Shown: positions 1-64,000, counted from the first letter of the stretch. The stretch is DNA of 64,000 nt from a virus (IMGVR_UViG_2857089846_000001:60154-124153), one strand, 5' to 3'. Notes: generated by a model not told the origin, from the letters alone. Numbers and translations are program-made.

Positions 1-250
1 TGGGCGCGTCGTCTACCGTGTCCACGCCCACCTCGAACGTGAGGGTCGCCGGGCCTTTCCAGTCCTGCCCGAGCCGGATGCCGTCCTCCCGCGGCATGGC
101 GACGTCGCCGGCGTCCATATCGCCGTACGCGATCTCCACCGGCTCAAGCAGGTAGTAGCCGCTCGCGATGGTGCCGAACGTGAAGTCCGCGGCCGGGTGG
201 ATGCCGTTGGCGGCGTACTGCAGGTTCCACTCACCCTCAGCCAAAGGCAT
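1..250 (-). CDS. Distal tail / minor tail protein, N-terminal part (runs off window)
   Basis: ATG at 250 overlaps the tape measure end and follows GGAGG. Reads MPLAEGEWNLQYAANGIHP...GDVAMPREDGIRLGQDW...LTFEVGVD. Position directly after the tape measure gene. Not in the ORF track. Confidence 0.65.
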   Translation of the reverse strand, partial: MPLAEGEWNLQYAANGIHPAADFTFGTIASGYYLLEPVEIAYGDMDAGDVAMPREDGIRLGQDWKGPATLTFEVGVDTVDDAP

Positions 251-3200
251 GTGCGCCTCCCCGGCGGATACGGCGGAGCTCGAACATCGTCTCTCCCAGG
301 GCCTGCGCCGGCCGCATCGGCTCGGCGGTCATGGTCAGGTTCAGGTCCCCGCCGACGAGCGCGGTGTTCCCCTGGGGAACAGCAGCGCGCGGTGCCGTGG
401 CGGTGGAGCGTGTGCTGCGGTGGGCAGCCATGGCGCCGCCGGTCTGGTCGTGGATGCCTCCATTGGCGAACCAGGCGACCGCGCCACCGAACCGGCGGAC
501 AACCTCCTCCACGATCGCCTTGGAGCGGCCCCGCTTGGACTCGGCCAAAGGCACGTACGCCTCTCCGTGAGTCTCCGGCTCTCCAAAGACCCGCCACGAG
601 CCGGCGGGGACGATCTGTGCGATGTGCCTCTCCGCGCGGCGAATCCCTCCGTTGGCGAACTGCTGAATCCTCTTGGCGGCCTCGGTGATGCCGCCGTTGG
701 CGAAGTAGTCCACGACGCCGCCGTTGGCCTGCGGCACTGCCTGGATGAGGTCGGGAACACCGTTGGCGTCCCGGTCCCAAGAGGTGGCCTTGAGGTAGAC
801 GCCGATGCCGACGTTGCGGGGCGCAATGGTGTTGATCTTCCTGTTGATGGCGTCCACGTTGGCGTTCACGGTGCCAGGAGGCGCGGTGATCTTGAGTTGC
901 TTGGCGCCCTTCGCCCCGGGAACCGCCTCGACCTTGAAGCCAAGGTTCCGGAGTGCGGTCACCGCATCGCCGGTGAGCGCCTTCATGGTGAAGGGCTTGT
1001 CCTTGAACCTCGCGACCCGTTCGGCGACAGCTCTGAGGTCTTCGTGTGCCTTGGCAGTCTGCGCAGCGACGCTGACGGACTTGTTCGCCGGCATCGTGTT
1101 GGCCGTGTCGATGAAGGTGGTCAGGTTGGCTCTCGCGTCTTCGGTCTTCGCGATGACCTCGAACCGGCCGTCCTCCAGGTTCTTGACCTCGAAGCCGAGG
1201 GTCTCCAGCTTCTCCCGGGCGCCTTCGTCAAGCATGTTGACCGTGATCGACTTCGGGTCTCCGAGGCCGTCGAACTGGGCCTGGATACCGGCCATGGCGA
1301 CGGTGACGGCGTCCTGGCCCTCCAGCTTGAGGCCCGTCACGACACTGTCGGGAATGAGACCCATCTGGTCAGCGATCTTCTCGGCGTCCTGGGCGCCCAC
1401 GCCGAGGGATCTCAGCCAGGCGACCAGCGAACCGCGGCCCTTCTCCGCTTCGATCCGCGCGGCCGCCAACTGTTCCACGAGCGGCTTGCCGGCGGCCCCG
1501 GCCTTGTCGAACGCGGCCTGCACCTTGCCGAGGGCGTCATCGGCGAGCCCTGTCGAGAGCCGGTAGATGTCCTGGCCGAGCTTAGAACTGGTGTCGAGGA
1601 GGCCGTCCTTGAGGATGGGCTTACCCTTGGCCGCGCCGGCGTTCTCCTTGGCGAACTCCCGCATCTCCAGCAGGCGGGCATTGAGCCTCTGCGTCGCTTC
1701 GGCGTACGAGCGCGTCTTGCCGGACAGGGCCTCGATGAGGCTCTTCAACGCCGACGTACGGGATTCGGCGTCACCTGTCGAGTCAGCCAGCCTCTGAACG
1801 GCATCCCGCACCCGGTCGTATGCGGTCACGCCCTTGCGGGCGAATGCGTCCTGGAGCACACCAGTCTCTTCGAGCTCCTTGCGGGCGTCGGCCAGGCTCG
1901 TGCCGTGCTTGCCGATCGCGTCGGCCGCAGCAAGCGCCGCTTTGCCCTCCTCGGTCATTGTGCGAATGGTGGACTTGCCGCCCGCTACGTCCTTCCAGTA
2001 TTCGGTGGCCTTCGCGGCAGCCCGCAGCTTCTTTTCGAGCGCGTCCAGGTCGGTGCCCTGCCCGAGGATCGCCCGGGTCAGCTGTTCCGTGCTGACGCCG
2101 GCCTTCGAGGCCGCCTTGCCCCACTCGGACTCGACAGCGAGCTTGCGAGCTTGGGCCACGACGTTGTCATCGATGGCGCCGTTGGACATGCGCAGGGCGT
2201 CAACGAGCGTCTGGACCTGCGCCCGGTGCTCGGCAGCGGCCTGCGCGGCGTCCTGCTGCCGGTCGGCGAAGGCCATGAGGGCAACGGCACCCACGCCGAG
2301 GGCGAGGCCAAGGGGACCACCGACCAGGCCCAACACTCCGGTGAGACCGCGGGACATGACGCGAGTCGCAGCGGTCGCTCCGCGTGCGGCGCCGGCGATT
2401 CCGCCAGTCTGCTGCGAGATGCGCTGGTACACGAGTCCAGCCCGGTGCCACGCGCTGGTGACGGCTGCGATCCGCGCCGGCTGACCGGCCAGAGCGGTAC
2501 CGGCTCCCGCGATGGAGGTACCCAGCGCCGTGAACATGCTGGACACGCCGCGCAGCACCTTGAGGGCGAGCAGTACGCCGAGCAAGGAGCCGAGCGCTGT
2601 TCCAAGGCCGGGGACGGCCTGGAAGGCGCTGTTGATGGCGACTGCCAGGGAGGCGAAGGCCTTCACGACGACGGCCAGGCCGAGCCCTGCCGTGGCCAGG
2701 TTCTCGAAGATGCCTGCCAGTGACGACAGCAGGCTGATCAGCTCCGGGCCCACCGTGCGGCCGAGCTGGTCGAGGAAGCTACCGACGGACGGCATGAGCT
2801 CGTAGCGGATCTGGCGCACCAGTTTCACCAGGCTCTTGTCGGTGGCCATCTTCGCGAGTCCCTTGCCGAGATCGCCGAGCAGGCCGATGGTCTCTCGGTA
2901 CACGGGGAGCGACTGGTCGAAGAAGGCCTTCATGCGCTTCTGGCCCTCTGCGGAGTTCGCCCAGGCGTTGAAGTAGCGCATCTGGAACTCAAGGCCCTTG
3001 AGCAGCGAGTTGCCGGATGCGCTCGCGGCGCGCCCCATGCCGGCCAGGCCGTGGCCGAGGTCGATGGTGGTGCGCAGCAGCTGCTTGCTCTTGTCGATGG
3101 ACCGCTGCAGGAACCGGTCGATGGAGCCGTCAGCGCGGTTGGACTCGGTGGCTACGCGCAGCCAGTTCGCCCATCCCTCACCCAGCGCGGCCACCCGCTG

Positions 3201-4295
3201 GACCGCGGGGCCAGAGGCGACGACGAAGTCGCCGACGGCGTGGCCGATGCTCTTCAGCCCGGCAATCAGGGACCCGGCGACCTTGTTGCTGGAAGCGGCG
3301 ACCTGGTCGAAGTCCTTCTTGAACGAGTTGGTCTGGGCGCCTTTCGACATGGCGCGGAGCAGGTTGCCGACCTGGCCCGCGGACGAGCCGAGTGCCGACT
3401 CAAACCGCGGGAGGATCGCGTTCGTAAGCGGCTCGACCTGGTCGGCAATTTTGGAGAAGAGCGACTCCTGGACGCTCTTCCGCATGTCCTTCCACTTGTC
3501 GCTGACGCCGGAGATCGCCTTGACGGTCGCGCGGGCCGACTTCGACAAGCCCTTCATCGCCTGGTCGAGCTTCTTCTGCTGGGCCTCAGTCAGCTTCCCG
3601 CCGGCTGCGAGCTGGGTCTGGGCCTTGAGCGACTCCTTCAGGGCGTCGGCGAAGCCTCCGAAAGCGACCCTGGCGCCGATCGCTGCGATGCCGGCGCCGG
3701 CGATCAGGCCAGGGAGCGTGCCGAGAATGCCGACCGCGGGCGCGGCCGCGCTGGCGAGCGCGGTGAGTCCGGCACCGAGCTGCGTGACCCACGCGACGGC
3801 AGGCTGAGCGAGCGCGACGATCGCCCCGAGGAGGAGGCCACGCATCCGGCCACGGCCGAGTCTCGGCGTCTTCACGTTGACCGGCACATGTATCGGTGTC
3901 CGGTCTACGTCGCGCTGCGCGCCCTGAAGGAGACGGCGGATGCGGTCGAGGAAGCCGCCCCTGCGCGCCCCGCTTCCGTCGCCGTCTTCGTCGGGGCGTA
4001 CGGGCACGTTGATGCGAGCGTCGCTGTTGCCGACCAGGCGGGCGATCTCTTCGAGCTCACCTCGTAGCCGGTCGCGGTCCACCTTGACCTGGACCTTGGC
4101 CGTGACGCCTCTCGACGCCTTCTTCACGGCCTTCTCCAGGCGCTTACGCAGGCCGCTGTCGTCAACCTCGACCTGGACCTTGGCAGCCAGGCCCTCGGCG
4201 GCCGCCTCGACCTTCGTCCGCAGCTCGCGGGCGAATCCGTCGAGCGCCGCGACGACGGTGACTTCGAGGCGGCCGGCCTGCAAGCCCTCAGACAC
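237..4295 (-). CDS. Phage tail tape measure protein
   Basis: 1352 aa, Ala/Gly/Leu-rich and helical with hydrophobic stretches; C-terminal FANGG...GEPETHGEAYVPL motif; follows the tail chaperones. Confidence 0.9.
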   Translation of the reverse strand: MSEGLQAGRLEVTVVAALDGFARELRTKVEAAAEGLAAKVQVEVDDSGLRKRLEKAVKKASRGVTAKVQVKVDRDRLRGELEEIARLVGNSDARINVPVRPDEDGDGSGARRGGFLDRIRRLLQGAQRDVDRTPIHVPVNVKTPRLGRGRMRGLLLGAIVALAQPAVAWVTQLGAGLTALASAAAPAVGILGTLPGLIAGAGIAAIGARVAFGGFADALKESLKAQTQLAAGGKLTEAQQKKLDQAMKGLSKSARATVKAISGVSDKWKDMRKSVQESLFSKIADQVEPLTNAILPRFESALGSSAGQVGNLLRAMSKGAQTNSFKKDFDQVAASSNKVAGSLIAGLKSIGHAVGDFVVASGPAVQRVAALGEGWANWLRVATESNRADGSIDRFLQRSIDKSKQLLRTTIDLGHGLAGMGRAASASGNSLLKGLEFQMRYFNAWANSAEGQKRMKAFFDQSLPVYRETIGLLGDLGKGLAKMATDKSLVKLVRQIRYELMPSVGSFLDQLGRTVGPELISLLSSLAGIFENLATAGLGLAVVVKAFASLAVAINSAFQAVPGLGTALGSLLGVLLALKVLRGVSSMFTALGTSIAGAGTALAGQPARIAAVTSAWHRAGLVYQRISQQTGGIAGAARGATAATRVMSRGLTGVLGLVGGPLGLALGVGAVALMAFADRQQDAAQAAAEHRAQVQTLVDALRMSNGAIDDNVVAQARKLAVESEWGKAASKAGVSTEQLTRAILGQGTDLDALEKKLRAAAKATEYWKDVAGGKSTIRTMTEEGKAALAAADAIGKHGTSLADARKELEETGVLQDAFARKGVTAYDRVRDAVQRLADSTGDAESRTSALKSLIEALSGKTRSYAEATQRLNARLLEMREFAKENAGAAKGKPILKDGLLDTSSKLGQDIYRLSTGLADDALGKVQAAFDKAGAAGKPLVEQLAAARIEAEKGRGSLVAWLRSLGVGAQDAEKIADQMGLIPDSVVTGLKLEGQDAVTVAMAGIQAQFDGLGDPKSITVNMLDEGAREKLETLGFEVKNLEDGRFEVIAKTEDARANLTTFIDTANTMPANKSVSVAAQTAKAHEDLRAVAERVARFKDKPFTMKALTGDAVTALRNLGFKVEAVPGAKGAKQLKITAPPGTVNANVDAINRKINTIAPRNVGIGVYLKATSWDRDANGVPDLIQAVPQANGGVVDYFANGGITEAAKRIQQFANGGIRRAERHIAQIVPAGSWRVFGEPETHGEAYVPLAESKRGRSKAIVEEVVRRFGGAVAWFANGGIHDQTGGAMAAHRSTRSTATAPRAAVPQGNTALVGGDLNLTMTAEPMRPAQALGETMFELRRIRRGGAHAFG
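365..381. repeat. 17-bp palindrome, candidate parS (TGTTCCCCTGGGGAACA)
   Basis: Perfect 8-1-8 palindrome inside the tape measure CDS. Confidence 0.75.
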
Positions 4296-4716
4296 TGGGG
4301 CGCACCATTCCTCTCCGTGCGGCAGCCGCGAGCATCTTGCGGTGGCCGTTCATTGGGGCGGACTGCTGCGCCGGGGCGCTGTTCCCCCGGGGAACAGCTG
4401 GTGCCGTGTTGTACGGGCGGGTGACCGTCCGCGGCTCTTCACGGCGTCGGTCGGCGGCGAGCAGGGAGACCTCCTCGATGAGCTGCGCCAGGAGTTCGGT
4501 CTGGATGGTCCAGCCGCCGATCGGCGCGGACTTCAGGCGGGACTCGTCCGGCAGCCCGTCGAGGAAGGAGATCAAGCGTCGGAGTCCGATGAAGCCGGGC
4601 TGTCCGGGACGGAGCCAGATACCTCGGGCGTCGAGCCCGTGGTGGAATCGGCTGAGGTCGGACTCGACGTCTCGCCATCGCTCTCGGAGGAGGCGCCGAG
4701 CCCAAAGAGCTTTCCC
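4288..4716 (-). CDS. Tail assembly chaperone, -1 frameshift extension (lambda gpGT-like)
   Basis: G GGA AAG slippery heptamer at 4716-4710. The -1 frame is open and reads GKALWARRLLRERWRDVESDLSRF...RRLISFLDGLPDESRL into ORF 4288..4575. Confidence 0.85.
   Translation of the reverse strand, partial: GKALWARRLLRERWRDVESDLSRFHHGLDARGIWLRPGQPGFIGLRRLISFLDGLPDESRLKSAPIGGWTIQTELLAQLIEEVSLLAADRRREEPRTVTRPYNTAPAVPRGNSAPAQQSAPMNGHRKMLAAAARRGMVRPSV
4380..4396. repeat. 17-bp palindrome, candidate parS (TGTTCCCCCGGGGAACA)
   Basis: Perfect palindrome, extended by GC flanks, inside the chaperone extension. Confidence 0.75.
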
Positions 4717-5102
4717 AGCTCAACTCCGTAGAGCTTGGCCAGGCCTACGGTGAGGCGGAAGTATGCGGGTACCGAGGGCTTCACGGACTGGAAGCGTTCG
4801 AACGCTTCCTTGCCGAGGAGCTCGCCGAACACCGCGTCGAGGGCGTCCAGGAAGTTCGAGGGCAGGTCGCGGCGCTGGAACAGCAGCTCCAGCATCTGCC
4901 AGGTGCTGCCGCCGTTCTGGGAGCGGACCAGGTCGCCGAGGAGGCCCATCAGGTCGAGTTCCTTGGACAGGAGCGGGGTCAGTGCCGCGGCGGGCAGCTC
5001 GGCCGGGAAGCGGAAGCCGTGGCCGTTGAGACGGACGTTGATTCCGTCCGGGTAAGCCATCTCGCGCTCGGCGATCTCGTCCAGGTTGAGGTCGTACTGC
5101 AT
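4572..5102 (-). CDS. Tail assembly chaperone (lambda gpG-like)
   Basis: 176 aa upstream of the tape measure gene; contains the ELGK slippery site followed by a Ser-rich tail. Confidence 0.85.
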   Translation of the reverse strand: MQYDLNLDEIAEREMAYPDGINVRLNGHGFRFPAELPAAALTPLLSKELDLMGLLGDLVRSQNGGSTWQMLELLFQRRDLPSNFLDALDAVFGELLGKEAFERFQSVKPSVPAYFRLTVGLAKLYGVELGKLFGLGASSESDGETSSPTSADSTTGSTPEVSGSVPDSPASSDSDA

Positions 5103-5181: not shown

Positions 5182-5230
5182 TCGGCCTGGCGGCAGCAGC
5201 CGCCGGCCGCCGAGGAATCCGGCTCTCGGC

Positions 5231-5247
5231 TGTTCCCCGGGGGAACA
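5231..5247. repeat. 17-bp palindrome, candidate parS/operator upstream of parB
   Basis: TGTTCCCCGGGGGAACA, extended to 25 bp by CGGC/GCCG flanks, ~100 bp before parB. Confidence 0.8.
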
Positions 5248-5343
5248 GCCGGCCGCGTGTACACCCCATCTGCGCACAGACCCGGGGGGTCTGGGGACTA
5301 GCCTCTACCTCGACCGCATCTCGCAGCTATCAGAAGGACATCT

Positions 5344-6726
5344 GTGGCAGGGAACCTGAAGAGGGCCAAGAGGAACAGCAGCGGGGGTGGCGCAAACGTC
5401 CCATCCCCGAGCACCGAGGCGAATGCCGCGTTCTACGCACTCCCGCCCACTGAGGCGGACGGCGAGGCATTGAGCATCGAGCTCTCGGACATCTCGGCGA
5501 ACCCGTTCAACGACCGGGACACCGGGGACGTGACAAACCTCGCTGAAAGCATCAAGAAGGACGGCCTGCTCCAAGACGTGTCGGTGATTCACGCCTCCGT
5601 CTTCACCGAGTGCTATCCCGAGGTCGAGGGCATCACCACGAAGTACGTGCTCGCCTTCGGCGAGCGGCGTTGGCGCGCCCACCAGGCCGCCGGCCTGAGC
5701 CACATCTCCGCGGTCCTGCGCAACGACGTGGCGCCGAAGATCCGGCGGGTCCTGTTCGTTGAGAACTTTCACCGCAAGCAGCTCTCCCCGATGGAGGAGG
5801 CGCGGCGGTTCTACCGCATGAACACCGAGGAGGGGATGAGCTACCGGGAGATCGTTGAAGAGCTCAGCCTCGGCGGCCCGAACCACGTCTCCCGGCGGAT
5901 CGAGCTCCTGAAGCTCCCCGCCGCGCTCCAGGACGTCGTCGGCACCGACGAAGGCCCAGGTGTCACGCTCGCGCGAGACATCCTCGGCAAGTTCGCCGAG
6001 CCCGAGAACCAGATCCGCGCCTGGGAGCTGATCCGAGACGAGGAGATCTCTCTCGGTGAAGCAGTGCAGCGCATCCACGGGGGCGACGGTGTTCCCCAGG
6101 GGAACGACGTACCGATCCAGCGGACCGCGGAGCCGGCGGCGAGCCCTGCTCCTGCGTCAGGCGCAGAGGAGACCCCGGCGTCCGACGAGAAGACAGCGAC
6201 CGGGAAGAAGCCGAAGACGCAGACGCCGCAGCCGAAGATCATTGCGGCTGACAAGGACACCGCCCACCGCAACAACGCCTCAGCGGACCGTGAGTCCGCT
6301 TGCAAGCACCTCGTCGGATTGGGCGCCAAGCTGACGGCGGAGCAGCAGGACGCGCTGTTCGCTCGCGCTCTGCTGGCGAACACGCAGCAGGCACCCGCCC
6401 GGACCCGGGCACACAGGTGGCTCCGTGAGGCAAGCCAGGCGGAATTCACGATCAGCGACACCGATTCGTACTTCGAGGCCGTACTGTCGTCCGGCAAAGA
6501 CGACCTCATCAACCGTGTCGCCTTCGTTACGGCCCTCGCTGCTGGCGAGGTCCGGGCCCGCGACGGCCGTCGGCAGTGGGACCGCACCGACGCCGATCAC
6601 GTCCGGCTCCTGATCGAGGTCGGCAACTACCACCCGCAGACCGGGTGGGAGCGAGCACAGCTCACCAAGTTCGGCGTTCCCTTCCCCGGAGCCGACGAAG
6701 AACCCGACGCCGACCCCATCAGCTGA
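5344..6726 (+). CDS. parB: ParB/Spo0J family partition protein
   Basis: ISANPFNDR, LAESIKKDGLLQ, arginine patch FGERRWRA, ENFHRKQLSPMEEA, HTH MSYREIVEELS...VSRRIELL; RBS AGAAGGA. Confidence 0.9.
   Translation: MAGNLKRAKRNSSGGGANVPSPSTEANAAFYALPPTEADGEALSIELSDISANPFNDRDTGDVTNLAESIKKDGLLQDVSVIHASVFTECYPEVEGITTKYVLAFGERRWRAHQAAGLSHISAVLRNDVAPKIRRVLFVENFHRKQLSPMEEARRFYRMNTEEGMSYREIVEELSLGGPNHVSRRIELLKLPAALQDVVGTDEGPGVTLARDILGKFAEPENQIRAWELIRDEEISLGEAVQRIHGGDGVPQGNDVPIQRTAEPAASPAPASGAEETPASDEKTATGKKPKTQTPQPKIIAADKDTAHRNNASADRESACKHLVGLGAKLTAEQQDALFARALLANTQQAPARTRAHRWLREASQAEFTISDTDSYFEAVLSSGKDDLINRVAFVTALAAGEVRARDGRRQWDRTDADHVRLLIEVGNYHPQTGWERAQLTKFGVPFPGADEEPDADPIS
6090..6106. repeat. 17-bp palindrome, candidate parS inside parB (TGTTCCCCAGGGGAACG)
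   Basis: One terminal mismatch to the consensus. Confidence 0.7.
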
Positions 6727-6737: not shown

Positions 6738-7667
6738 ATGTCCAACAAGACCCTGCCCAGGCGTGACCTGCGCCCGGAGGGCCGAAACTGGCCGCTGCTC
6801 TTCGCCGCGTTCATCATCACCGGCGGCAGCGCCAAGACGAGCACCATCATCATGATGGCGGTCACTCTCGCCCTTCGCGGCTACAAGGTCCGCGTCTTCG
6901 ACTTCGACCACCAGCGCAGCGCCAGCCACATCGGCTGCGCCATGGACGAGCTGCCCGCGGGCCAGGGCACCATCTACGACCTGATGCACGGCGCCTCTCT
7001 GGAGGACTGCACCGTTCCGTTCCGCTACGTCGTCAACCCTGCGGATGCGGCGACGGGCGCGCCGGCCGAATACGAGGAGGTCGAGAATCTTCGGATCGTT
7101 CCTGGTTCCCGGAACGTGAAGAACTTCGACACCGAGACGACGCAGGAGGGCAACGAGCAGCTGATCACCTGGTTCCGCGAGCTGTGCGACGAGTACGAGG
7201 GCGACGATGATGTGTGGCTGCTCGACCTGCCGGCGTCGCTGAGCAAGCTCGTGGTGTCCGCGCTGATCCCGTTCCAGGAGGACGACGAGATCGTTCCGCC
7301 GGTCCTGGTCACGAGCAAGGAAGAGACCGACCTCAAGGCGACGTTCGAAGAGCTGGCGGAGATGCGGAACCAGCAGAACGCACGCTCCCGCCGCCGTAAG
7401 ACCGCCCCCACCATCAAGCACATCGTGATGGCCGGAACCCCCACCCCGGGCCGCCCGGACGCCGAGGGGGACGCGACGGTGGAGTCCATGACGAGGACAT
7501 ACGGGGAGCACTTCCAGCTCCATAAGGTCCGCTGGAGCAGCTTCGTCCGCCAGCAGCACCGGCGCCAGGCCCCCGTGCACGCCTGGGGCCCCAAGAACGC
7601 CGCACCGATCGAGGACTACAACAAGCTGGCCACGGCCCTCGGGTTCGTGGATCTCGACAACGCCTGA
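6738..7667 (+). CDS. parA: ParA family ATPase
   Basis: ATG 6738 after GGAG. Deviant Walker A TGGSAKTS, VRVFDFDHQRSAS, LRIVPGS, WLLDLPAS, C-terminal DYNKLA. Confidence 0.88.
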   Translation: MSNKTLPRRDLRPEGRNWPLLFAAFIITGGSAKTSTIIMMAVTLALRGYKVRVFDFDHQRSASHIGCAMDELPAGQGTIYDLMHGASLEDCTVPFRYVVNPADAATGAPAEYEEVENLRIVPGSRNVKNFDTETTQEGNEQLITWFRELCDEYEGDDDVWLLDLPASLSKLVVSALIPFQEDDEIVPPVLVTSKEETDLKATFEELAEMRNQQNARSRRRKTAPTIKHIVMAGTPTPGRPDAEGDATVESMTRTYGEHFQLHKVRWSSFVRQQHRRQAPVHAWGPKNAAPIEDYNKLATALGFVDLDNA

Positions 7668-7673
7668 GAGGGC

Positions 7674-7690
7674 TGTTCCCCTGGGGAACA
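7674..7690. repeat. 17-bp palindrome, candidate parS just after the parA stop
   Basis: TGTTCCCCTGGGGAACA. Confidence 0.8.
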
Positions 7691-7695
7691 GCAAG

Positions 7696-7764: not shown

Positions 7765-8355
7765 CTACGGGGCGTCGTCGAACGAGCTGTCGTTGGTCAG
7801 GAGGTACCAGGCGTCCGCGTCGTCGCCGCCCTGCACGGCCAGGCGCAGCGGCAGCACCGCTTCCTTGGCCTTCTGTAGGTCGGTCTGCACGCCTTCCATC
7901 TGCATGGAGCGCGGGATGACATAGCGGTACGCCTTCGCGCCGTCGATGACCTCGATGCACGCGGCGACCTCGGAGCGGCCGCCGATCCGCGGCGGCGCGA
8001 ACTTGTAGTGCGTGGTGGCCGGAGGTCCGGCAACGTTGATCTCGGTGATGGTGCCGCCGCCGAAGACGGCCTTGAAGTTCTTCGCGTTCCACTGCTGGAG
8101 ATCGACCTCAAGGGTCGCGCTGTCGCTGGTCTGGAACGTGCGGGACGGGAAGTCGGTCTGGGCGCTCTTGACCTGTTCGAACTGGGGCTCTTCGTTGAAC
8201 TTCAGAGAGTCCTCGGTGGTCAGGCCGACCGAGTACCAGCCGGCCGGCATCGCCACGGTGGCATCGGCAGGCGCTGCCGTACCGACGGGAGCGAGCCAGA
8301 CTCGGGTTCGTGCGGGGACGACGATGTGCGTCGCGTTCGTGATCTCGCCAGCCAT
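7765..8355 (-). CDS. Major tail (tube) protein
   Basis: 196 aa; VWLAPVGTAAP...WYSVGLTTEDS typical of actinophage tube proteins; located between neck genes and chaperone. Confidence 0.85.
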   Translation of the reverse strand: MAGEITNATHIVVPARTRVWLAPVGTAAPADATVAMPAGWYSVGLTTEDSLKFNEEPQFEQVKSAQTDFPSRTFQTSDSATLEVDLQQWNAKNFKAVFGGGTITEINVAGPPATTHYKFAPPRIGGRSEVAACIEVIDGAKAYRYVIPRSMQMEGVQTDLQKAKEAVLPLRLAVQGGDDADAWYLLTNDSSFDDAP

Positions 8356-8430: not shown

Positions 8431-8754
8431 CTAGAAGGGGCGCGGGCACGGAAGAAGAGCGGTCTGCGCGCGGGCCATGCTGAGGAGCAGGCCGATGTGC
8501 TTCCGCTGGGCATGTTCCTCGATGACGCGGAGTGTTTCCGCGCACTGGGTCCTCATGGGCATGAGATGCCGGATCAACCGCACCGGCATGGCGAAGCTGA
8601 CCACCGCCGCTCGCCACGAGCCCAGGAGCGCGGCGTCTGCGTCCGCCTGGTCGAACTGCACGTCGGCGATGCCACCGATCGGCGTCCAGGCGGCGGAGTC
8701 GTCAGGGTCGGTACCTACGGGAGCGATGCTGACGAGGGGGCCATTGAGGTTCAC
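8431..8754 (-). CDS. Hypothetical protein
   Basis: GTG start overlaps the upstream stop (GTGA) after GGAG; ~107 aa. The N-terminal IAPVGT..W resembles the start of the tube protein. Confidence 0.55.
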   Translation of the reverse strand: MNLNGPLVSIAPVGTDPDDSAAWTPIGGIADVQFDQADADAALLGSWRAAVVSFAMPVRLIRHLMPMRTQCAETLRVIEEHAQRKHIGLLLSMARAQTALLPCPRPF

Positions 8755-9194
8755 GAGGACTCCGGGGTCGGGTGCAGCGAGACGAGCAGGCCCATTACCC
8801 ATCGGGGCTGGCCTGTTTCCAGGGGGGATTCGAGGAGTACGCCGGACGGGCGGACGCGGCTGATGACGGGATGGGTGCCGGACGGGGTGCTGCCGGGCAG
8901 CTCGGTGACGGCGACAGCGCACACCTTGAGGATTCGGCTCATGGCGGCCGGGCCGGGCCAGCCGCTGGGGTCGCCGAACAGCTCCAGCGTCACCTCCGGT
9001 TCGGTGAGCCACGTCAGATCGCCGAGGCTGCCGCCCGGCCCGAGGGCAACCCGCAGGTGAGGCCACGGGGCCTCGCGGGTGCCGGACACGCGGCCGGGCC
9101 CGCCGAGCACTTGGGTCACCTTGGGGTGCTCGGCGAGCCAGGACAGGACGGCCGCCACCGGGTCAGCGTCAGCGATGGCGTAGGCGTCGGTCAT
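8751..9194 (-). CDS. Probable tail terminator
   Basis: MTDAYAIADADPVAAVLSWL...PWPHLRV; 147 aa; position before the major tail gene. Confidence 0.65.
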   Translation of the reverse strand: MTDAYAIADADPVAAVLSWLAEHPKVTQVLGGPGRVSGTREAPWPHLRVALGPGGSLGDLTWLTEPEVTLELFGDPSGWPGPAAMSRILKVCAVAVTELPGSTPSGTHPVISRVRPSGVLLESPLETGQPRWVMGLLVSLHPTPESS

Positions 9195-53716: not shown

Positions 53717-54925
53717 CTACTCCGCTGCCGTGCCCTCGCTTCGGGGGAAGCCCCCCAGGGGCACTTGGTTGAGCGGGTCCTCCTGGCCCTCGGTCTCCGG
53801 CCTGTCGTACACAGTGTCCGCGGTGTGCGACTCCGCCGACCAGCGGCCTCGGCGGTTGCGTTCCCGCAGCGGTACGCCCGCCGCGACCATGTCGGTATTG
53901 GCGCCGGCTCGCAGGGAGTGCGCGGTGACCTTCTTGTTGGCGATGTAGGGGATGCCCGCGAGGTCCGCGAGGTGCTGGATGCGCTCGTTGAGTGCCCCGC
54001 CCTTCATGCGGTCGCCGCGCTTGGTCGCGAGGGTTCGGTTGGCCAGGTTGCCCTTGACGGTGAGGGCTCGGAAGAGGGGCTGGGTGGGGCCGTCGGCCCC
54101 GAGCTCTCTCAGCACCGAGAGCCAGGCCCGGGCGCGGGAGACCAGCCGGAGGTCTTCCCGGTCCTGGATGAACTCCGTGGCGCCCTTGGACTGCTTGTCC
54201 GTCTTGGAGGTGGCGGTGGTGACGATGAGCCCGCTTGCTGTGATCCTCACGTTCTGCACCAGCAGATCGGCCAGCTCGATGCGGCGGTGGAGGTTGCCGT
54301 ACGCCAGGGCCAGCATGAAGGCGTCACGGATGCCGATGCTCGTGGTCTCGTCGCACTGCTGAAGGCAGCGCATCAGGTAGGGGATGGTCAGCGCGGCAGA
54401 GCGCTGAACCTCCCCGCCGGCGGCCTTCCAGTCCTTGCGCCACAATCGCAGCTTCCCGCGCACTCGGGAGGGGTCGGGCCGCCAATCCTCGGGCTGCCAG
54501 TTCCAGATCCGGCTCATGTACTGGCCGACGGTGTCGGGCACGAACTCGCCGGACTTGCCCCGCCGGATCAGGTGCAGGCCGTAGGAGGTGTACGTCGCCG
54601 TGGTGCACGGCCATGCCAGTCGCGGCGGTTTCTGCTCGGCGCACCACTCCTCGAAGGCCCGAACGGTCGAGTCCCGGTTGATGATGGTGTTCTCGGCCAG
54701 GTCCGGCTCGTCCAACTCGGCCTTGTCCTCGGCGGAGATCCGGAAGTCGTCATCGGTCCAGGCCGGCCGGGCGTCGGCGCGCGGCGGCATCTCCCCGGGC
54801 CCCAGCATGGTGTGTTGGTTGACCAGGTAGCGCACAGGCTCGACTGCCGGGCCGGCGCCGTCGTCCACCACCTCGGCTTCGTACACTTCCAGATCGGCCG
54901 CTACGCGAGCCCCGTCCGCCGTCAT
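53717..54925 (-). CDS. Cre-like tyrosine recombinase
   Basis: RDAFMLAL..RRIEL, SKTD, HSLRAG, GRW, catalytic Y in TVYDR; N-terminal NT..FEEWC core-binding domain. Confidence 0.9.
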   Translation of the reverse strand: MTADGARVAADLEVYEAEVVDDGAGPAVEPVRYLVNQHTMLGPGEMPPRADARPAWTDDDFRISAEDKAELDEPDLAENTIINRDSTVRAFEEWCAEQKPPRLAWPCTTATYTSYGLHLIRRGKSGEFVPDTVGQYMSRIWNWQPEDWRPDPSRVRGKLRLWRKDWKAAGGEVQRSAALTIPYLMRCLQQCDETTSIGIRDAFMLALAYGNLHRRIELADLLVQNVRITASGLIVTTATSKTDKQSKGATEFIQDREDLRLVSRARAWLSVLRELGADGPTQPLFRALTVKGNLANRTLATKRGDRMKGGALNERIQHLADLAGIPYIANKKVTAHSLRAGANTDMVAAGVPLRERNRRGRWSAESHTADTVYDRPETEGQEDPLNQVPLGGFPRSEGTAAE

Positions 54926-55912: not shown

Positions 55913-56863
55913 TTATTCCTCTTCGCCTAGTATTTTGAGGACCCCTGATCTCCATTTAGTTTCCCAGAGATGCTTGATGTCCTCTCTGTGCTCTTGCGTG
56001 GGGGACAGGTTGTCGGGTAGCTGCATAACGGCAGCTCGTAGACCGTCGGCTTGGCTGTCGCGGAAACAGGCGTCCGTGGCGACATGCACTACAACCGACC
56101 ACTGGCCTAGGGCCACGTCTCGCTCTGGCGCCCTGTGCACTGTCGCCTCGGAGCAGTCGAGCCAGGCCGTGGGTACGGTGGCCGGCGCTGCCGTGCCGAG
56201 GTCAGGCAGCACGAGCAGGGCGAGAAGGTACTGCTTTTCACGCGGTCCCTCCCGCCTGAGCTTGCCCGCGACCTTCTTCTCCAGTTCGCTCTGCACCGTG
56301 CGCGGGTGATTGGCGAGCCAAGGAAGCAGGTCATGGTTCCATTTCCACGCCGCGTATTCGCCTCCCGCGTCACTCCATCGCTGCTTGAATGCGGAGAGCG
56401 CTTCGAGAATCAGTTCGTTCGGCTTGACCGGCAGGTACGAGTGGTACGCGTCATCGCGCACGTCCAGGAAGAAGTCATCGAGAACCCTTCTCGCGCCTTT
56501 CACCTCAAGCAGTGTGTAACTGTAGGCGGAAGACACCGACGCTGGGTCCGTCTCGGCAGGCGGCGTTTCCCGTTCGGGGTCGTGGAGGAATCGACCGCTG
56601 TCGCTGAGGTTCTCGATATCCTCGGGAAGCGGTTCGACCGGCGTGTCGAGAACCTTCTTCAGCCGATCGTCAAGTTCCTCTCGCGAGAACACAGGCATAT
56701 CCACTGTGTCGTCATCCGGAGAGTGTTGCATCAGATCCCACAGGATGGACAGGTACGAGTTGGCCTTGCCGGAACCGGCGGCGGTCTCGACTCGACCGGG
56801 TTCGAGACTACTGACGCCTCGCTGCATGGTGGGGCCACCCCACTCCTCGACGATGAACCTCAC
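55913..56863 (-). CDS. Hypothetical protein coupled to the ECF sigma factor
   Basis: GTGA overlap with the sigma stop; ~316 aa; lower GC than flanks. Confidence 0.65.
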   Translation of the reverse strand: MRFIVEEWGGPTMQRGVSSLEPGRVETAAGSGKANSYLSILWDLMQHSPDDDTVDMPVFSREELDDRLKKVLDTPVEPLPEDIENLSDSGRFLHDPERETPPAETDPASVSSAYSYTLLEVKGARRVLDDFFLDVRDDAYHSYLPVKPNELILEALSAFKQRWSDAGGEYAAWKWNHDLLPWLANHPRTVQSELEKKVAGKLRREGPREKQYLLALLVLPDLGTAAPATVPTAWLDCSEATVHRAPERDVALGQWSVVVHVATDACFRDSQADGLRAAVMQLPDNLSPTQEHREDIKHLWETKWRSGVLKILGEEE

Positions 56864-57393
56864 TTCTGCCCCTCTACGTCGCTGTCCCTCAGCTTGCTGA
56901 GCTTGGCCCTTGCCCGGGCGAGCCGAACTCGCCGGTTGCCCTCGGTGATACCGAACTCCTCGGCCTGTTGCCGCTTCTCGTAGCCTGCCGCCTTCATCAT
57001 CAAGAGCCGTTGGTCGTTCTCCGGGAGGCTGCGGATCTGGTCCCGGAGGTGCGCTAGGGCGACACAGTTGTCCGGACTGGAGGTCGCTGACGCGGGCCAC
57101 TCACCGAACCTCTCGGCCGGATCGCACAGAGATTCCCGCCGACTCGCTCTCTTCCTGTTGAAATCGAGGAACCGTTTCAAAGCTTTGTCCCAGAAATAGC
57201 CTTCGGGGCTCTCTATGTCAGCCCATTCCTTCATTGAGGTCTCTGTGTAGGCCTGCTGTAGGACATCTTCTGCATCTTGCTGTGACAGCCGGAATCTGCG
57301 CATCGCCCGGCGCAAGAATCTGCTGTACGTCGCACCGAAGAACTCCTCGAAGGAGGCCCACTCGTCCTGTGCGCGCGGCGCTTCATGGCTCAC
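56860..57393 (-). CDS. ECF-type sigma-70 factor
   Basis: Region 2 DAEDVLQQAY; region 4 IRSLP..QRLLMM..AEEFGITEGNRRVRLARAR. Confidence 0.85.
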   Translation of the reverse strand: MSHEAPRAQDEWASFEEFFGATYSRFLRRAMRRFRLSQQDAEDVLQQAYTETSMKEWADIESPEGYFWDKALKRFLDFNRKRASRRESLCDPAERFGEWPASATSSPDNCVALAHLRDQIRSLPENDQRLLMMKAAGYEKRQQAEEFGITEGNRRVRLARARAKLSKLRDSDVEGQK

Positions 57394-57607: not shown

Positions 57608-58060
57608 ATGAAGATCACCATTGAGTGCGAGGACCCGGCACCGCCGGAACTCGTGGCCGCCGTGACGGATCTGATGGCCCGCATCGGCCCGCAGGCCTCT
57701 GTCTCGACCGACGACGGGTGGACCGTCGAGCGGGCCGAGAAGCTGCTCCGCGACACCAACCCCCGCACCTTGCTCCTGTTCGACGCAGCGATCGAGGGAG
57801 AAGGATGGGTCGACGGACCCGCCTTCCGGGAGAAGTGGGGGGACAACGCCCTCCGTGGGCCCTCGCAGACCATCACGAAGGCCATCAAGCGCGGTGCTGA
57901 GCGGGGCCATTGGTCCGCCGACATCACCCCGCCGTTTACCCCCACCACGCCGGACAAGTCGGGTTGGTCGAAGACCGGCGGCTACTACCTCGGCGACGGA
58001 CTCCTACCCGTCTTCCGCGAAGCCATGAAGCGGTACAAGGAGAGGAGCCGCGGCGAATGA
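57608..58060 (+). CDS. Hypothetical protein
   Basis: 150 aa, RBS AGGA, normal high-GC codon bias. Confidence 0.75.
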   Translation: MKITIECEDPAPPELVAAVTDLMARIGPQASVSTDDGWTVERAEKLLRDTNPRTLLLFDAAIEGEGWVDGPAFREKWGDNALRGPSQTITKAIKRGAERGHWSADITPPFTPTTPDKSGWSKTGGYYLGDGLLPVFREAMKRYKERSRGE

Positions 58061-58662
58061 CCCGCCAGACGCAGGCGCCGATCGAGCACACGAACTTCAA
58101 CCCGATGTTCCGGCGGGCCTCCGCCATCGTGGACGACGTGAGGCGAGGCAACTTGGATCTGCACCCGCCGTACCAGCGCGGCAGCGTATGGAACGACGAG
58201 CAGCGGATGAACCTCATCGAGTCGTGGCTGTACGGCGTACCAACCGGGCCGATCGTCCTGGTCGACCGGGCCAACGGCAAGTGGAAGACCGAGGACGGCC
58301 AGCGTCCCCTGTACGACGACGTGGACGTGGCCATGTGGGGCTGCGCGGATGGGCAGCAGCGCATCACCACGGCCATGGCCTGGTTCGATGGCGAGTTCGC
58401 AGTCCCTGCCTCCTGGTTCGATGGCGAGTTTCTCGAGACGACGGAGGAGACCGCGGACGGCCCGTACGTCCGCTTCACCGGCCTGACCAAGCCAGGTCAG
58501 CTCAAGTTCGACTTGCACCTGGCGTCCTTCCAGGTGTCTGAGGACAGGACGTGCACCGGCATGGCGGACGAAGCCCGGACCTATCTGCTGATCAACACCT
58601 CGGGCACCGCGCAGACCAGTGCCGACCTCGACAACGCCCGGCGTGTCGCCGCAGGAGGCTGA
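58057..58662 (+). CDS. Standalone DUF262 (GmrS-like, ParB/Srx fold) protein
   Basis: PPYQRGSVW, LIESW..GVPTG, DGQQRITT, LINTSG. Confidence 0.85.
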   Translation: MTRQTQAPIEHTNFNPMFRRASAIVDDVRRGNLDLHPPYQRGSVWNDEQRMNLIESWLYGVPTGPIVLVDRANGKWKTEDGQRPLYDDVDVAMWGCADGQQRITTAMAWFDGEFAVPASWFDGEFLETTEETADGPYVRFTGLTKPGQLKFDLHLASFQVSEDRTCTGMADEARTYLLINTSGTAQTSADLDNARRVAAGG

Positions 58663-61202: not shown

Positions 61203-63161
61203 GTGCCTTCGCATGACTCGATATTGGCGCGCGCCGCGCTGGGGACCGCGGGCGCGCTGGGTTCGCTGTGCCGCTGGTGTGCGCGCCGCCGCTACGAACT
61301 GGCTCCCGGCGCCGCGTCGACCGGTCTGACGGGCCTGTCGTGGCTTCACCACCTGGACGGCGTCAGCCTCGGTGAGCACATCGTGTACGGGGTGGCGACG
61401 GCCGCGGCCGCGGGCCTCGCCGCGGGGGGGCTCAAGCACAAGCACAGGGGCGTGGCGGCGGCCGGGGCGAGCGGCATGGTGGTGCTGGCCGACGCGTGGA
61501 TCGGTGCCGGCCTCGGCCCGTCCGTGCCGTCCCTGATCGCGAGTGCGCTGGCCACCGGCGGCGCGTACGCCATGTACGTGCCGTGGCTGGTGAAGTCGCG
61601 TCAGCAGCAGCTCTCCCTCCAGGTGAAGGCGGCGAAGTCCGGCGTCACCGCCGAGGGCCTGGGTACCAACACGCTCGCCCCCGGGCTGACCGGCGCGACC
61701 GCGGAGGAGACCGCGCTGCTGCGCGCCCTGGTCGCGATGCTGTCTGTGCCCGCGGTGGACGTGACATCGCTGGACTACACGCCCTTCGGGTGGCGGGCGG
61801 TCATCGTGCTGCCGCCTGGCCGCAACACCGCCCCGCAGAAGGTCATCGCACGCAAGGACCAGCTCGCCGCGAACCTCGGGCTGCCCGGCAAGCTGCGTCT
61901 GGCCCGGGGAGAGAAGGACAACGAGCTGGTCGTCTCCCTGTACGAGTCGGACCCGCTGGCAACGTCGATCCCGTGGCCGGGCCCGTCCACGCGGACGTGC
62001 ACGGAGCCGGCCGTGCTGGGCATGGACGCCTTCGGCAACCCGGTCCTGATCCCGCTGCTGTACAACCACGTGCTGATCGGTGGCTCGACGGACAACGGCA
62101 AGAGCGGTGTGCAGAGCGTCCTCATCGCGTACGCGGTCGCCTGCGACGACGCCGAGGTGCTGCTCATCGACATGAAGCCGGGGGCGGTGGAGTTCGGCCC
62201 GTGGCGGGACTGCGCCCTCGCGCTGGCCGATTCGCCGAGTCGCGCGATGCAGCTGCTGAAGCTGGTGTGGGCGGAGGTCGAGCGCCGCGGTGCGCTCTTG
62301 GCCGAGCTCGGCGAGAAGAAGTGGGTGCCGGGCAAGCACGGTCCGGCCTGGTTCGTGTTCATTGACGAGCTGGCCGAGCTCGTACGCCGGGTGCCGCAGG
62401 CCGCGAAGCTGATCGAGTCGCTGCTCCAGGTGGCGCGGTTCGTGGGCATCACTCTGGTGTGCGCCACTCAGTCGCCGTCGAACCGGGTGTTCGGCGGGTC
62501 AACCGACGGGCGCCAGCAGTACCAGGTGCGTATCGGGCTGGGCGCGAAGGAGTCCACGACGTCGAACCTGATCTTCGGGCCGGGGGCGTACGGGGATGGC
62601 TGGTGCCTGGACGAGCTGGACGCGCCGGGCAAGTTCCTGCGCTGGGACCGCGAGCACCAGGTCCCGGTCGAGGCCCGGGGGTTCTGGATGACTGACGAGG
62701 ACGTCGCGGCGACGAGCCATCGCTACGCCCGGGAGGAGGGCGAGAGCGAGGCCAGGGAGCATCCGGAGCCGTCGCCGGACCCCGACGACGACTCGCCTCC
62801 GCCGATGCCTCCCCCGCCGCCGTCCGGCGGTCCCGGGGGCGGCCGTCCCGTGCTGCGCGCGGTGCCGGTGTTCCCCGACGGAACGGAGATCGCCGACGAG
62901 CGTCATCTCGCGCTGTGGCAGGCCGTCGAGAAGGCGGGCCCGCAGGGCATCACCGTGGACGACCTGGTGGCGCTCGACCTCCCCCAGTTCGCCGCTCGTT
63001 CCTCGGTGAACGGGCCGCTGGGGCAGTGGCGTCGCAAGGGCTGGGTCGAGGAAGCGGGGAAGAAGGGCCGGGCGATGGCCTACCGGACGGTGCCGCGGCA
63101 CGCGGTCGAGGAGGCGCCGGAGGCCGTGGAGGACTCCGAGTCGGCCACGGTCAGTGGATGA
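61203..63161 (+). CDS. FtsK/SpoIIIE-family DNA translocase, TraB-like
   Basis: N-terminal TM helices, Walker A GGSTDNGKS, LIDMKPG, Walker B VFIDELAEL, ATQSP, Pro linker, C-terminal wHTH-like domain. Confidence 0.85.
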   Translation: MPSHDSILARAALGTAGALGSLCRWCARRRYELAPGAASTGLTGLSWLHHLDGVSLGEHIVYGVATAAAAGLAAGGLKHKHRGVAAAGASGMVVLADAWIGAGLGPSVPSLIASALATGGAYAMYVPWLVKSRQQQLSLQVKAAKSGVTAEGLGTNTLAPGLTGATAEETALLRALVAMLSVPAVDVTSLDYTPFGWRAVIVLPPGRNTAPQKVIARKDQLAANLGLPGKLRLARGEKDNELVVSLYESDPLATSIPWPGPSTRTCTEPAVLGMDAFGNPVLIPLLYNHVLIGGSTDNGKSGVQSVLIAYAVACDDAEVLLIDMKPGAVEFGPWRDCALALADSPSRAMQLLKLVWAEVERRGALLAELGEKKWVPGKHGPAWFVFIDELAELVRRVPQAAKLIESLLQVARFVGITLVCATQSPSNRVFGGSTDGRQQYQVRIGLGAKESTTSNLIFGPGAYGDGWCLDELDAPGKFLRWDREHQVPVEARGFWMTDEDVAATSHRYAREEGESEAREHPEPSPDPDDDSPPPMPPPPPSGGPGGGRPVLRAVPVFPDGTEIADERHLALWQAVEKAGPQGITVDDLVALDLPQFAARSSVNGPLGQWRRKGWVEEAGKKGRAMAYRTVPRHAVEEAPEAVEDSESATVSG

Positions 63162-63780: not shown

Positions 63781-63796
63781 TGGCAGGATCTCCGCC

Positions 63797-64000
63797 ATGG
63801 CTCGCATCGTCTTTGCGCTGAACAAGTCGCTCACGGATGAGCAGATCACTGCCGTGTACGACCTTGCCGAGGAGTTCGAGGTCGGGGTCCATCTGTGGGG
63901 CAACACGCCCTCGCTCGCGCGTGACTCCTTCACCTGGGCGGTCGAGGGCAGCTTCCTCCAGATCCGCCGGTTCAAGCGGGCTCTGGAGGCAATGCACTGA
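63797..64000 (+). CDS. Hypothetical protein
   Basis: 67 aa, RBS AGGA, TGA at the window end. Confidence 0.6.
   Translation: MARIVFALNKSLTDEQITAVYDLAEEFEVGVHLWGNTPSLARDSFTWAVEGSFLQIRRFKRALEAMH

Follow-up and report, generated by a model that had tools for sequence, protein, structure and literature searches.

Right half of a probable Streptomyces-type phage-plasmid related to phage Gilgamesh, with candidate centromere sites, a giant DarB-like protein and a lanthipeptide cluster

Phage-plasmids have been well studied in enterobacteria but hardly in Streptomyces, where pZL12 is the sole worked example. That element, also called phiZL12, is said to have been reported in J Bacteriol in 2010 (by Zhong et al.) and to be about 90 kb in size. 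The available portions of two sources describe it as a Streptomyces plasmid-phage with ParA/ParB and conjugal tra genes (PMC4487206, PMC3583192). The phage-plasmid P1 joins a partition operon and its centromere sites to the recombinase Cre and to DarB, a methyltransferase-helicase. The DNA considered here, IMGVR_UViG_2857089846_000001:60154-124153, is a viral stretch of 64,000 nucleotides (hereafter the window), which an earlier note, made from the sequence alone, had described as a P1-analogous actinomycete phage-plasmid combining virion genes, partition, Streptomyces-type conjugation and a cluster for a ribosomally synthesized and post-translationally modified peptide (RiPP). As we read it, the window probably makes up the right half of a temperate phage-plasmid, 129,958 bp long and of the siphovirus type, from a Streptomyces-like host; phage Gilgamesh and plasmids in the range of about 125-137 kb belong to the same family.

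Phage-plasmids as a kind are known; this one is a new member, and its family is public as sequence without a description that we could find. No published account of a Gilgamesh-like family was found in the literature collection searched (the supplementary lists of Pfeifer et al. 2021 and Pfeifer and Rocha 2024 may include these plasmids), nor any literature pairing "Gilgamesh" with "Streptomyces" phage. Streptomyces goes unmentioned in the main text of Pfeifer et al. 2021.

Virion genes and family

The window corresponds to G000:C1:7,083,769-7,147,768, G000:C1 being the single 7,289,495-bp sequence in which it lies, and the element to G000:C1:7,021,856-7,152,092 (129,958 bp). Positions 1-64000, the coordinates given in the earlier note, are thus not its borders: the window covers about the right half, and the left half, with genes for the large and small terminase subunits (TerL and TerS), a lysin, a sigma factor, a single-stranded DNA-binding protein (SSB), a ParB-like protein, an amidase and distal tail proteins, lies outside it. 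The GC content of the window is 64-74% (2-kb steps), and 48 genes were called in it on the basis of third-position GC. Genes were identified through Pfam, PHROGs and NCBIfam and through homology to annotated Gilgamesh genes. An Rfam search of the window gave no matches, and no tRNA genes were found in the window or at 7.00-7.17 Mb, around the borders of the element.

The virion operon lies on the minus strand and runs, from high to low coordinates, through the portal-MuF gene, an open reading frame (ORF) for 7,055 aa, and the genes for protease, capsid, connectors, tail tube, chaperone and tape measure. The portal is fused to MuF (41407..43827; PF04860 E 6e-48, PF04233 E 8e-7), and the prohead protease, of the S78 type, to a 2H phosphoesterase domain resembling 2'-5' RNA ligases (15947..17794; PF04586 E 3e-12, PF13563 E 2e-10). 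The major capsid protein is of the HK97 type (14469..15779; PF05065 E 6e-27) and 66% identical to Gilgamesh gp53. The connectors comprise a head-to-tail adaptor (10391..11257; 56% identical to gp59), a MuF-like minor capsid protein (9521..10057; 64% identical to gp61, with a PF04233 match at E 5e-5, below the cut-off) and a tail terminator (8751..9194; 59% identical to gp63). Then come the tail tube protein (7765..8256; PF25681 E 3e-26), a tail assembly chaperone (4572..5102; 41% identical to gp65/66), a tape measure protein of 1352 aa (237..4295; 49% identical to gp67, with a weak PF06120 match) and the 3' part of a minor tail protein gene (2..250), which is whole at G000:C1:7083080-7084018 and whose product is 73% identical to gp68. 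In the structural block, from the distal tail genes to the portal, 28 of 34 genes match Gilgamesh, parB and parA being among the six that do not. The head, neck and tail genes of a siphovirus that the earlier note had seen are accordingly present by Pfam, PHROGs and NCBIfam as well as by this comparison.

With the left half included, the predicted virion and packaging set is complete: TerS, TerL (7,023,616-7,025,391, outside the window; 77% identical to Gilgamesh gp1), portal-MuF, S78 protease, HK97-type capsid, adaptor, terminator and tube, together with chaperones, tape measure, distal tail proteins and a lysin that is recognizable in part. Gilgamesh was isolated as a plaque-forming phage on S. 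lividans, and by homology to it the element would be expected to make infectious particles, induction leading to the packaging of its DNA by a headful mechanism.

The comparison with Gilgamesh (MN234216.1, 129,136 bp) extends beyond the virion. Gene order is the same; besides TerL and the capsid, the portal-MuF protein (54-59%) and a DNA translocase (47%) are shared, as are the tape measure, tail genes, TerS, SSB, the sigma factor and a giant gene between portal and protease. Gilgamesh differs in lacking parB-parA between the chaperone and tube genes, the palindromes described below and the lanthipeptide genes, and what its giant protein (4,624 aa) shares with that of the element is confined to the two ends, the first ~110 and the final ~1250 aa.

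The portal sequence, used as a tblastn query, found Gilgamesh (54% identity) and also seven Streptomyces plasmid records of 125-133 kb, with identities of 53-81%. The best of these, NZ_CP107821.1, is a circular plasmid of 132,597 bp from Streptomyces sp. NBC_00536, and by blastn it is collinear with 7,023,607-7,149,141 of the genome, wrapping around the coordinate origin of the plasmid. The collinearity is nearly complete and takes in the position of parBA, syntenic palindromes, a giant helicase gene (5,247 aa), a Cre-type recombinase (64%) and an FtsK-type translocase (82%). The plasmid differs in a slot after the portal, filled with 7-deazaguanine and nucleotide genes, in lacking a 344-aa gene next to TerL, and in being annotated only as a plasmid. 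Of 125 predicted genes of the element, 87 have a match in NZ_CP107821.1, 53 in Gilgamesh and 45 in a 300-kb region of another genome, G013.

When 400 genomes of other species in the genus were examined, TerL homologues were found in 15. Distant relatives (TerL ~68-69%) lie at 4.04 of 9.96 Mb in G013 and at 2.38 of 3.88 Mb in G256:C1, and a further relative, G360:C12, is a contig of 126,055 bp whose end and start overlap by 30 bp. The G013 relative includes a tRNA-Arg (GCG) gene (G013:C1:3965271-3965345) adjoining its gene for a ParB-like protein, whereas our element lacks tRNA genes.

At the level of the family, then, the label phage-plasmid is valid on the gene content: a circular plasmid is collinear with the element, plasmid records of 125-133 kb carry the portal, and the virion genes are those of Gilgamesh. 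Nor do attachment sites separate the phage part from the FtsK region, which by the earlier note would have counted against its reading; both reside in one element here, in NZ_CP107821.1 and in Gilgamesh. The element resembles pZL12 in being a Streptomyces element that is both plasmid and phage. pZL12 is probably of a different virion lineage; no 90-kb Streptomyces plasmid was among the 22 portal matches in PLSDB, where the inclusion of pZL12 is unchecked.

Partition and recombination

Two genes on the plus strand, parB (5470..6726, 418 aa; PF02195 E 1.7e-10, TIGR00180 85 bits against a cut-off of 58) and parA (6738..7667, encoding a 309-aa ATPase; PF13614 E 6e-13, PF01656), interrupt the minus-strand virion operon between the chaperone and tail tube genes. 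The pair was claimed in the earlier note and stands. The proteins are 47% (ParB) and 57% (ParA) identical to those of NZ_CP107821.1, and the cassette is missing from the corresponding place in both Gilgamesh and the G013 relative.

A palindrome, GCTGTTCCCC-N-GGGGAACAGC, accompanies the cassette. Perfect copies lie at 4378..4398, at 5229..5249, 5' of parB, and at 7672..7692, directly 3' of parA, so that the last two bracket the operon; copies with one mismatch lie at 363..383 and 9501..9521, and one with two mismatches at 16058..16078. With up to three mismatches there are seven copies in the window, where 0.00 would be expected, and with up to two mismatches there are eight in the whole genome, every one within the element. 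The 17-bp core, TGTTCCC-NNN-GGGAACA, occurs nine times in 7.29 Mb, always between 7,047,544 and 7,099,828, and the reversed control not at all. In NZ_CP107821.1 there are six core copies at syntenic places, all with CCCA..TGGG in place of CCCC..GGGG, both arms having changed. No copies were found in Gilgamesh, nor was the 21-nt pattern found in the 300-kb region of the G013 relative. Because they are specific to the element, linked to the cassette and changed in both arms in NZ_CP107821.1, as would be a centromere co-evolving with its ParB, the nine palindromes are candidate parS sites.

In phage-plasmid N15, which is linear with hairpin ends and is partitioned by SopAB, centromere sites are scattered through the genome. 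The element resembles it in having several centromere-like palindromes away from the par operon: they cluster around parBA but are also scattered through the virion-gene half, some of them inside or between head and tail genes. The arrangement suggests, as an idea with no evidence behind it, that the scattered sites affect the expression of late genes.

According to the model we propose, the prophage would persist as a low-copy circular plasmid, ParB binding the element-specific palindromes (TGTTCCC-NNN-GGGAACA) and ParA segregating the plasmid copies. The element's Cre-like enzyme would resolve plasmid dimers. The tyrosine recombinase encoded at 53717..54886 (minus strand, 389 aa; PF00589) found 17 sequence matches in the PDB, all 17 of them Cre or its derivative Tre (best E 7e-9). 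It aligns to Tre/Cre over residues 44-354 with LHRRIE, HSLRAG, GRW and TVYD present, and in the alignment to P1 Cre the catalytic Arg, His-x-x-Arg, Trp and Tyr positions are all filled, bearing out the Cre-like recombinase of the earlier note. It is conserved in NZ_CP107821.1 (64%) and in Gilgamesh (gp32, 33%). Dimer resolution is its likeliest role; a lox-like site (a 13-bp inverted repeat with a short spacer) was not found in the three intergenic stretches searched near the gene.

A second protein with a recombinase fold is encoded next to TerL, on the minus strand at G000:C1:7022483-7023517 (L004:10483-11517). Its 344 residues have no sequence match in Pfam, NCBIfam or the PDB, and its fold is evident only from a structural model (predicted local distance difference test, pLDDT, 82), which Foldseek places with XerA, Cre and Tn1549 Int (E 1e-5 to 1e-4, template modelling score, TM, ~0.5). 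An alignment of 20 homologues shows neither a Tyr nor a His that is invariant, and the TGLR motif lacks its Arg. The protein is probably not an active integrase and may be an inactive DNA-binding protein with a recombinase fold. Its homologue in Gilgamesh, gp2 (30% identical), is annotated "tyrosine integrase". The gene is missing from NZ_CP107821.1. Of the 14 homologues with at least 60% identity, ten are on contigs of 127-137 kb, four on contigs of 5-86 kb and none on anything longer.

Apart from one item, the gene list of the earlier note proved real by Pfam, PHROGs and NCBIfam. The exception is a toxin-antitoxin pair: two overlapping small ORFs do lie on the plus strand at 19218..19475 and 19472..19720, but the first has only a CopG_antitoxin match below the cut-off (E 0.007) and the second has no family match, leaving the proposed identity weakly supported.

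Free plasmid, prophage, remnant or conjugative element

The sequence at hand presents the element not as a plasmid but as a part of 7.29 Mb of DNA, bracketed by a perfect 279-bp direct repeat (7,021,856-7,022,134 and 7,151,814-7,152,092). The surroundings of the repeat are peculiar. The left copy is preceded by 277 bp that repeat, inverted and at 100% identity, an internal piece of a hupS-like gene at 4.968 Mb, and the first 77 bp of the repeat itself recur at 3.321 Mb. The right copy overlaps by 2 bp a 479-bp stretch found again, exactly but inverted, as the final 479 bp of the 7.29-Mb sequence, and the first 58 bp of this stretch recur at 6.540 Mb. No attachment site (attB) could be reconstructed in 30 relatives, since nothing conserved corresponds to the right flank and the left-flank genes are at varying places.

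Similar lengths recur throughout the genome. When it was compared with itself, 108 repeat pairs of at least 99% identity were found. Of these, 40 measure 230-294 bp, with 18 at exactly 277 bp, and 14 measure 73-79 bp, with eight at exactly 77 bp. A composite layout, ~277 bp followed by ~77 bp with the pieces copied exactly from unrelated loci, occurs at ten sites; two are the borders of the element, and further composites are, for example, at G000:C1 141641-141994, 713983-714334, 1040052-1040405, 3321018-3321339, 3539186-3539538, 3807332-3807649, 4577236-4577572 and 5106288-5106636, all outside the window. Judged by the phase of third-position GC, most repeat pairs combine a copy that keeps the frame of the sequence around it with one that breaks it. 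At each of the three composite sites compared with five complete relatives, the alignments end at the composite: those at 3.321 Mb and 1.040 Mb sit in extra DNA between neighbouring conserved genes, and the one at 0.853 Mb marks a point beyond which the sequence runs in the opposite orientation from that in all five. The composites look like stitch marks left by assembly. We had considered that a linear phage genome with 279-bp terminal repeats was captured beside a telomere by nonhomologous end joining, an idea dropped with the finding of the same composite pattern at eight other sites.

What lies to the right of the element also seems not to belong to the chromosome. The unit from 7,152,091 to 7,289,495 (68323-205727 in the numbering of the window) consists of 137,405 bp between the 479-bp inverted repeats, which hold palindromes such as CCCGCTCCGCGGG, which we take to be of the Streptomyces telomere type, and it encodes a D5_N/primase-helicase. 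It was compared with sequencing runs from three other organisms, which shared 0.30, 0.25 and 0.24 of the sampled words from the right border and were the best matches; in no run was the share as high as half. The contigs of all three cover the unit (~98-99%), beginning ~110-500 bp inside its end, and leave the phage element uncovered. None of them crosses the border, an absence to which we give no weight for the strain studied here. In two of the three runs depth roughly doubles within the inverted repeat, and the depth of the unit differs from that of other long contigs (416 vs ~129; ~252-324 vs 129; 49 vs 74-89). This is a hint, not proof, of a separate linear replicon, probably a linear plasmid that was appended to the sequence. 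At its other end (29-260), the whole sequence has short palindromes with GCTTCGC centres, telomere-like, which have no inverted copy elsewhere in it, and there is no terminal inverted repeat between its two ends. The chromosome part stops at 7,021,578 without telomere-like palindromes, and the other end of the chromosome seems to be missing. The "complete" single-sequence assembly is stitched, and the replicon structure of the strain should not be read from it.

Most likely, then, the attachment of the element to the 7.29-Mb sequence is an artefact of stitching. That the element is a free circular plasmid and the 279-bp repeat a contig overlap is the reading we lean towards, with some confidence, but several observations weigh against it. 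The element is after all embedded in a single sequence with identical repeats 129,958 bp apart, which is what integration of the Campbell type would give, and the repeat is only 349 bp from the gene for the 344-aa Cre/XerA-fold protein (Foldseek E 1e-5, TM ~0.5; missing from NZ_CP107821.1), an unlikely spot for a random contig break. The relatives in G013 and G256:C1 lie deep inside contigs of megabase size, so integration does occur in the wider family. No replication initiator, which was to be sought in the full contig along with terminase and lysis genes, was recognized in family searches of the element's proteins, and the composites match no assembly process that we could name. Perhaps, therefore, the element is truly integrated, by a single crossover through the 279-bp repeat or by site-specific recombination beside the recombinase-fold gene, and represents the prophage form of a phage-plasmid family. 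We consider this a minority possibility. Its flanks, an inverted piece of a hupS-like gene on the left and the terminal base of a 479-bp inverted repeat on the right, make an implausible attB; both borders match the stitch pattern found genome-wide; and the 344-aa protein, lacking an invariant Tyr or His in its 20 homologues, is probably inactive, its close homologues being on contigs of 127-137 kb. The studied element also keeps the parBA cassette, which the integrated G013 relative lacks. The circular map is cut open elsewhere in that relative than in the studied element, and no direct repeats of at least 25 bp at 95% identity were found flanking it, its limits being unmapped. Whether free or integrated, the element might be a decaying remnant that can no longer be induced to form particles, and the predicted lysin (G000:C1:7064263-7065192) could be taken in that sense, for it has no Pfam match and resembles Gilgamesh lysin A only in its last 72 aa. 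Such decay appears very unlikely: long ORFs are intact throughout, one of them encoding 7,055 aa; no frameshifted core genes were seen in the gene calls; and a phage that forms plaques shares 28 of the 34 genes in the structural block, the six without a match including parB and parA.

A different question, for an element that is presumed to spread by virions, is whether it also spreads by conjugation of the Streptomyces type, as the earlier note proposed, with a translocase pumping double-stranded DNA between hyphae in the manner of TraB. The protein in question (61224..63161, plus strand, 645 aa; PF01580 E 5e-11) is an FtsK/SpoIIIE-type translocase, distantly TraB-like. Its architecture is suggestive: the N-terminal 150 aa are hydrophobic, a Walker A motif (GSTDNGKS) stands at residue 287 of an FtsK motor, there is a Pro-rich linker, and the C-terminal part looks, by eye, like a winged helix. 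Its best NCBIfam model is indeed plasmid_TraB (NF041214, E 9e-17), and Tra proteins encoded by small Streptomyces plasmids, among them the 8,830-bp S. lividans record NC_001387.1, match it weakly. The score, however, is 60.8 bits against a cut-off of 800, so that the translocase of the earlier note survives as an FtsK/SpoIIIE protein but not, by this model, as a member of the TraB family. Similarity to plasmid Tra/FtsK proteins (those of its own family excluded) is 21-29% and confined to the motor, about equally for small plasmids of Streptomyces, whose Tra proteins are 25-28% identical to it, and for plasmids of Bacillus. An array of clt-like 8-mers was not found in the 1.6 kb searched (62400-64000 of the window), where the most frequent 8-mer has four copies spread over 1.3 kb. 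NZ_CP107821.1, where the translocase is 82% identical, is typed as non-mobilizable (MOB-suite, PLSDB), though MOB-suite typing may miss TraB systems. The gene is conserved (47%) in Gilgamesh and so belongs to the core of a virus. Because a phage keeps it, conjugation is merely one of several roles it might play; the translocase could drive intramycelial or conjugal transfer, or could clear plasmid DNA from closing septa. The generic FtsK-type motor is the only product recognized in the window as bearing on conjugation, and Streptomyces-type conjugation, unsupported as a claim about this DNA, is in our opinion doubtful.

Giant protein and cargo slot

The gene between portal-MuF and protease (19952..41119, minus strand) encodes a protein of 7,055 aa. 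Residues ~1039-2918 match the PHROG family of "DarB-like antirestriction" proteins (phrog_10089, E 7e-208 and 4e-172), and Pfam finds ResIII, SNF2 and Helicase_C in this part, with a weak match to Methyltransf_25; by these matches there is homology to DarB with its methyltransferase and helicase domains. Residues ~3187-3784 resemble a UvrD-like helicase (phrog_1967, E 2e-66). The N-terminal 1,000 aa and residues 4001-7055 have no PHROG matches, and the C-terminal 1,255 aa have none among PDB sequences at E ≤1 and only Atlas feature matches below 0.8, which is chance level. Yet it is the extremities that the family preserves: conservation throughout is limited to the first ~110 and the last ~1250 aa. 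The giant helicase of NZ_CP107821.1 (5,247 aa) has the DarB-like part in common at 40%, and the versions in Gilgamesh (4,624 aa) and G013 carry different middle parts. From these comparisons, the giant protein is one of swappable parts between conserved ends.

Because its gene sits between portal-MuF and protease, the protein can be placed in the class of polyvalent proteins, which the portion of Iyer et al. 2017 available to us (PMC5512222) describes as multi-domain proteins encoded among late genes near portal/MuF and predicted to be packaged and injected. It is like them in being a multi-domain giant in such a position, and by analogy it would be packed into heads, enter the next host with the DNA and there blunt restriction. 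We infer its packaging from gene position and from that work. The element differs from the cases given in that portion of Iyer et al. in the size of the protein, 7,055 aa, and in a second respect: they describe head proteins that carry a fused 2H phosphoesterase domain, but in the element this domain is joined to the prohead protease and not to MuF or portal. Following their idea, the protease-fused domain could be a head-delivered enzyme directed against cyclic or 2'-5' oligonucleotide defence signals. Its homologue is annotated as a "2'-5' RNA ligase family protein" in NZ_CP107821.1 and as a "hydrolase" in Gilgamesh.

With this protein added, the parallel to P1 drawn in the earlier note can be judged. 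It holds for functions, there being a partition operon with centromere sites (here candidate parS), a recombinase that aligns to Cre, and a DarB-like methyltransferase-helicase. It does not hold for kinship of the virion, since the siphovirus-type virion genes of the element are unrelated to those of P1. In addition, no lox-like site was found near its recombinase, and the DarB-like part accounts for no more than about a quarter of the 7,055 aa.

The region upstream of the portal operon is occupied by a lanthipeptide cluster of class I (44956-51669, minus strand). It encodes an LphD-like protein with a helix-turn-helix (HTH) and a PF14028 domain (44956..45912; PF14028 E 6e-25, TIGR03891 E 6e-44), a LanC/LphC lanthionine cyclase (45926..47074; PF05147 E 7e-36), a LanB/LphB dehydratase (47071..50067; PF04738 E 5e-193, PF14028), a precursor peptide of 64 aa (50162..50356) and an isoaspartate O-methyltransferase of the LphE type, from the FxLD system (50422..51669; TIGR04364 499.8 bits against a cut-off of 320, PF01135 E 3e-39). 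In the precursor, a leader with the motif FDLT is followed by the core T-G-D-G-C-GST-C-QSA-C; its C-terminus, ...NDTGDGCGSTCQSACSNSTCIGG, fits the core motif TxDxCxxxCxxxC. The RiPP cluster reported in the earlier note is thus there, as a class I lanthipeptide cluster with its precursor. The part of bioRxiv 10.1101/2024.06.26.600839 available to us gives this core motif, and accessory PF14028 and PF01135 genes, as marks of "lanthiphages", class I clusters, enriched on prophages and plasmids, that shield Streptomyces from phages and act intracellularly; class I lanthipeptide clusters in Streptomyces prophages had been noted, in the portion seen of a survey from 2023 (PMC10023795). By its gene content, the present cluster fits this anti-phage type in LanB, LanC, the PF14028 protein, the PF01135 methyltransferase, the core motif and the lack of a transporter in the cluster, and differs in being located directly after the portal operon, inside an element that its genes suggest is virion-competent. 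As defence cargo, it would guard the lysogen against other phages. No LanC homologues were found in 50,697 phage records.

The same slot in NZ_CP107821.1 (66781-74132) contains genes for folE, queE, 6-carboxytetrahydropterin synthase, thymidylate kinase, a NUDIX protein and a methyltransferase, which look like a set for 7-deazaguanine modification of DNA. Since its contents differ in this way, the slot after the portal may be regarded as a cargo site for defence or counter-defence modules. In the G256 relative (TerL ~68%), the same type of cargo appears in a different place: LanB, LanC, a PF01135-type methyltransferase and an HTH-PF14028 gene, with 40-47% aa identity, lie at G256:C1:2365112-2371780, ~9 kb from TerL.

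Other genes lie beyond the cluster. A DUF6415 protein is encoded at 51662..52126 (minus strand; PF19979 E 6e-24), and NZ_CP107821.1 has a DUF6415 gene as well. An insert of lower GC (63.5%) at 55913-57393 (minus strand), absent from the corresponding place in NZ_CP107821.1, comprises a gene for a sigma-70 family protein (56860..57393; PF08281 E 4e-6, with matches to regions 2 and 4) and one for a protein of at most 395 aa (ORF 55913-57100) without a family match. When ten small or otherwise obscure proteins were run through PADLOC, the only match was to a GmrSD_N/NsnA-like protein of 201 aa (58057..58662, plus strand; PF03235 E 2e-13, NsnA E 2e-12), which is much shorter than the models and could be either a fragment or a stand-alone domain that senses DNA modification. 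Near the right end of the element, a Ku-domain protein (G000:C1:7149394-7150029, plus strand; PF02735 E 1e-28) is encoded, with no counterpart in NZ_CP107821.1 or Gilgamesh.

One may go further and join these features into a single picture, improbable as a whole though it may be. The element would have three modes of spread: virions, a plasmid maintained by ParABS, and pumping by the FtsK/TraB-like translocase between hyphal compartments or mating partners. The centromere sites scattered among the head and tail genes would serve as a silencer too, the spreading of ParB keeping late genes off in the plasmid state, and the conserved ends of the 7,055-aa protein would be a chassis that delivers swappable anti-defence modules into the next host.

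The element points to a second, larger family of Streptomyces phage-plasmids, already public in the form of unannotated "plasmids" and one isolated phage. It offers parts that can be put to the test: a candidate centromere, a Cre-type recombinase, a DarB-like protein of record size, predicted to be injected, with exchangeable middle modules, and a cargo slot. A slot that holds genes for the hypermodification of DNA in one member and for an anti-phage lanthipeptide in another bears on how natural-product and defence modules move among antibiotic-producing bacteria.

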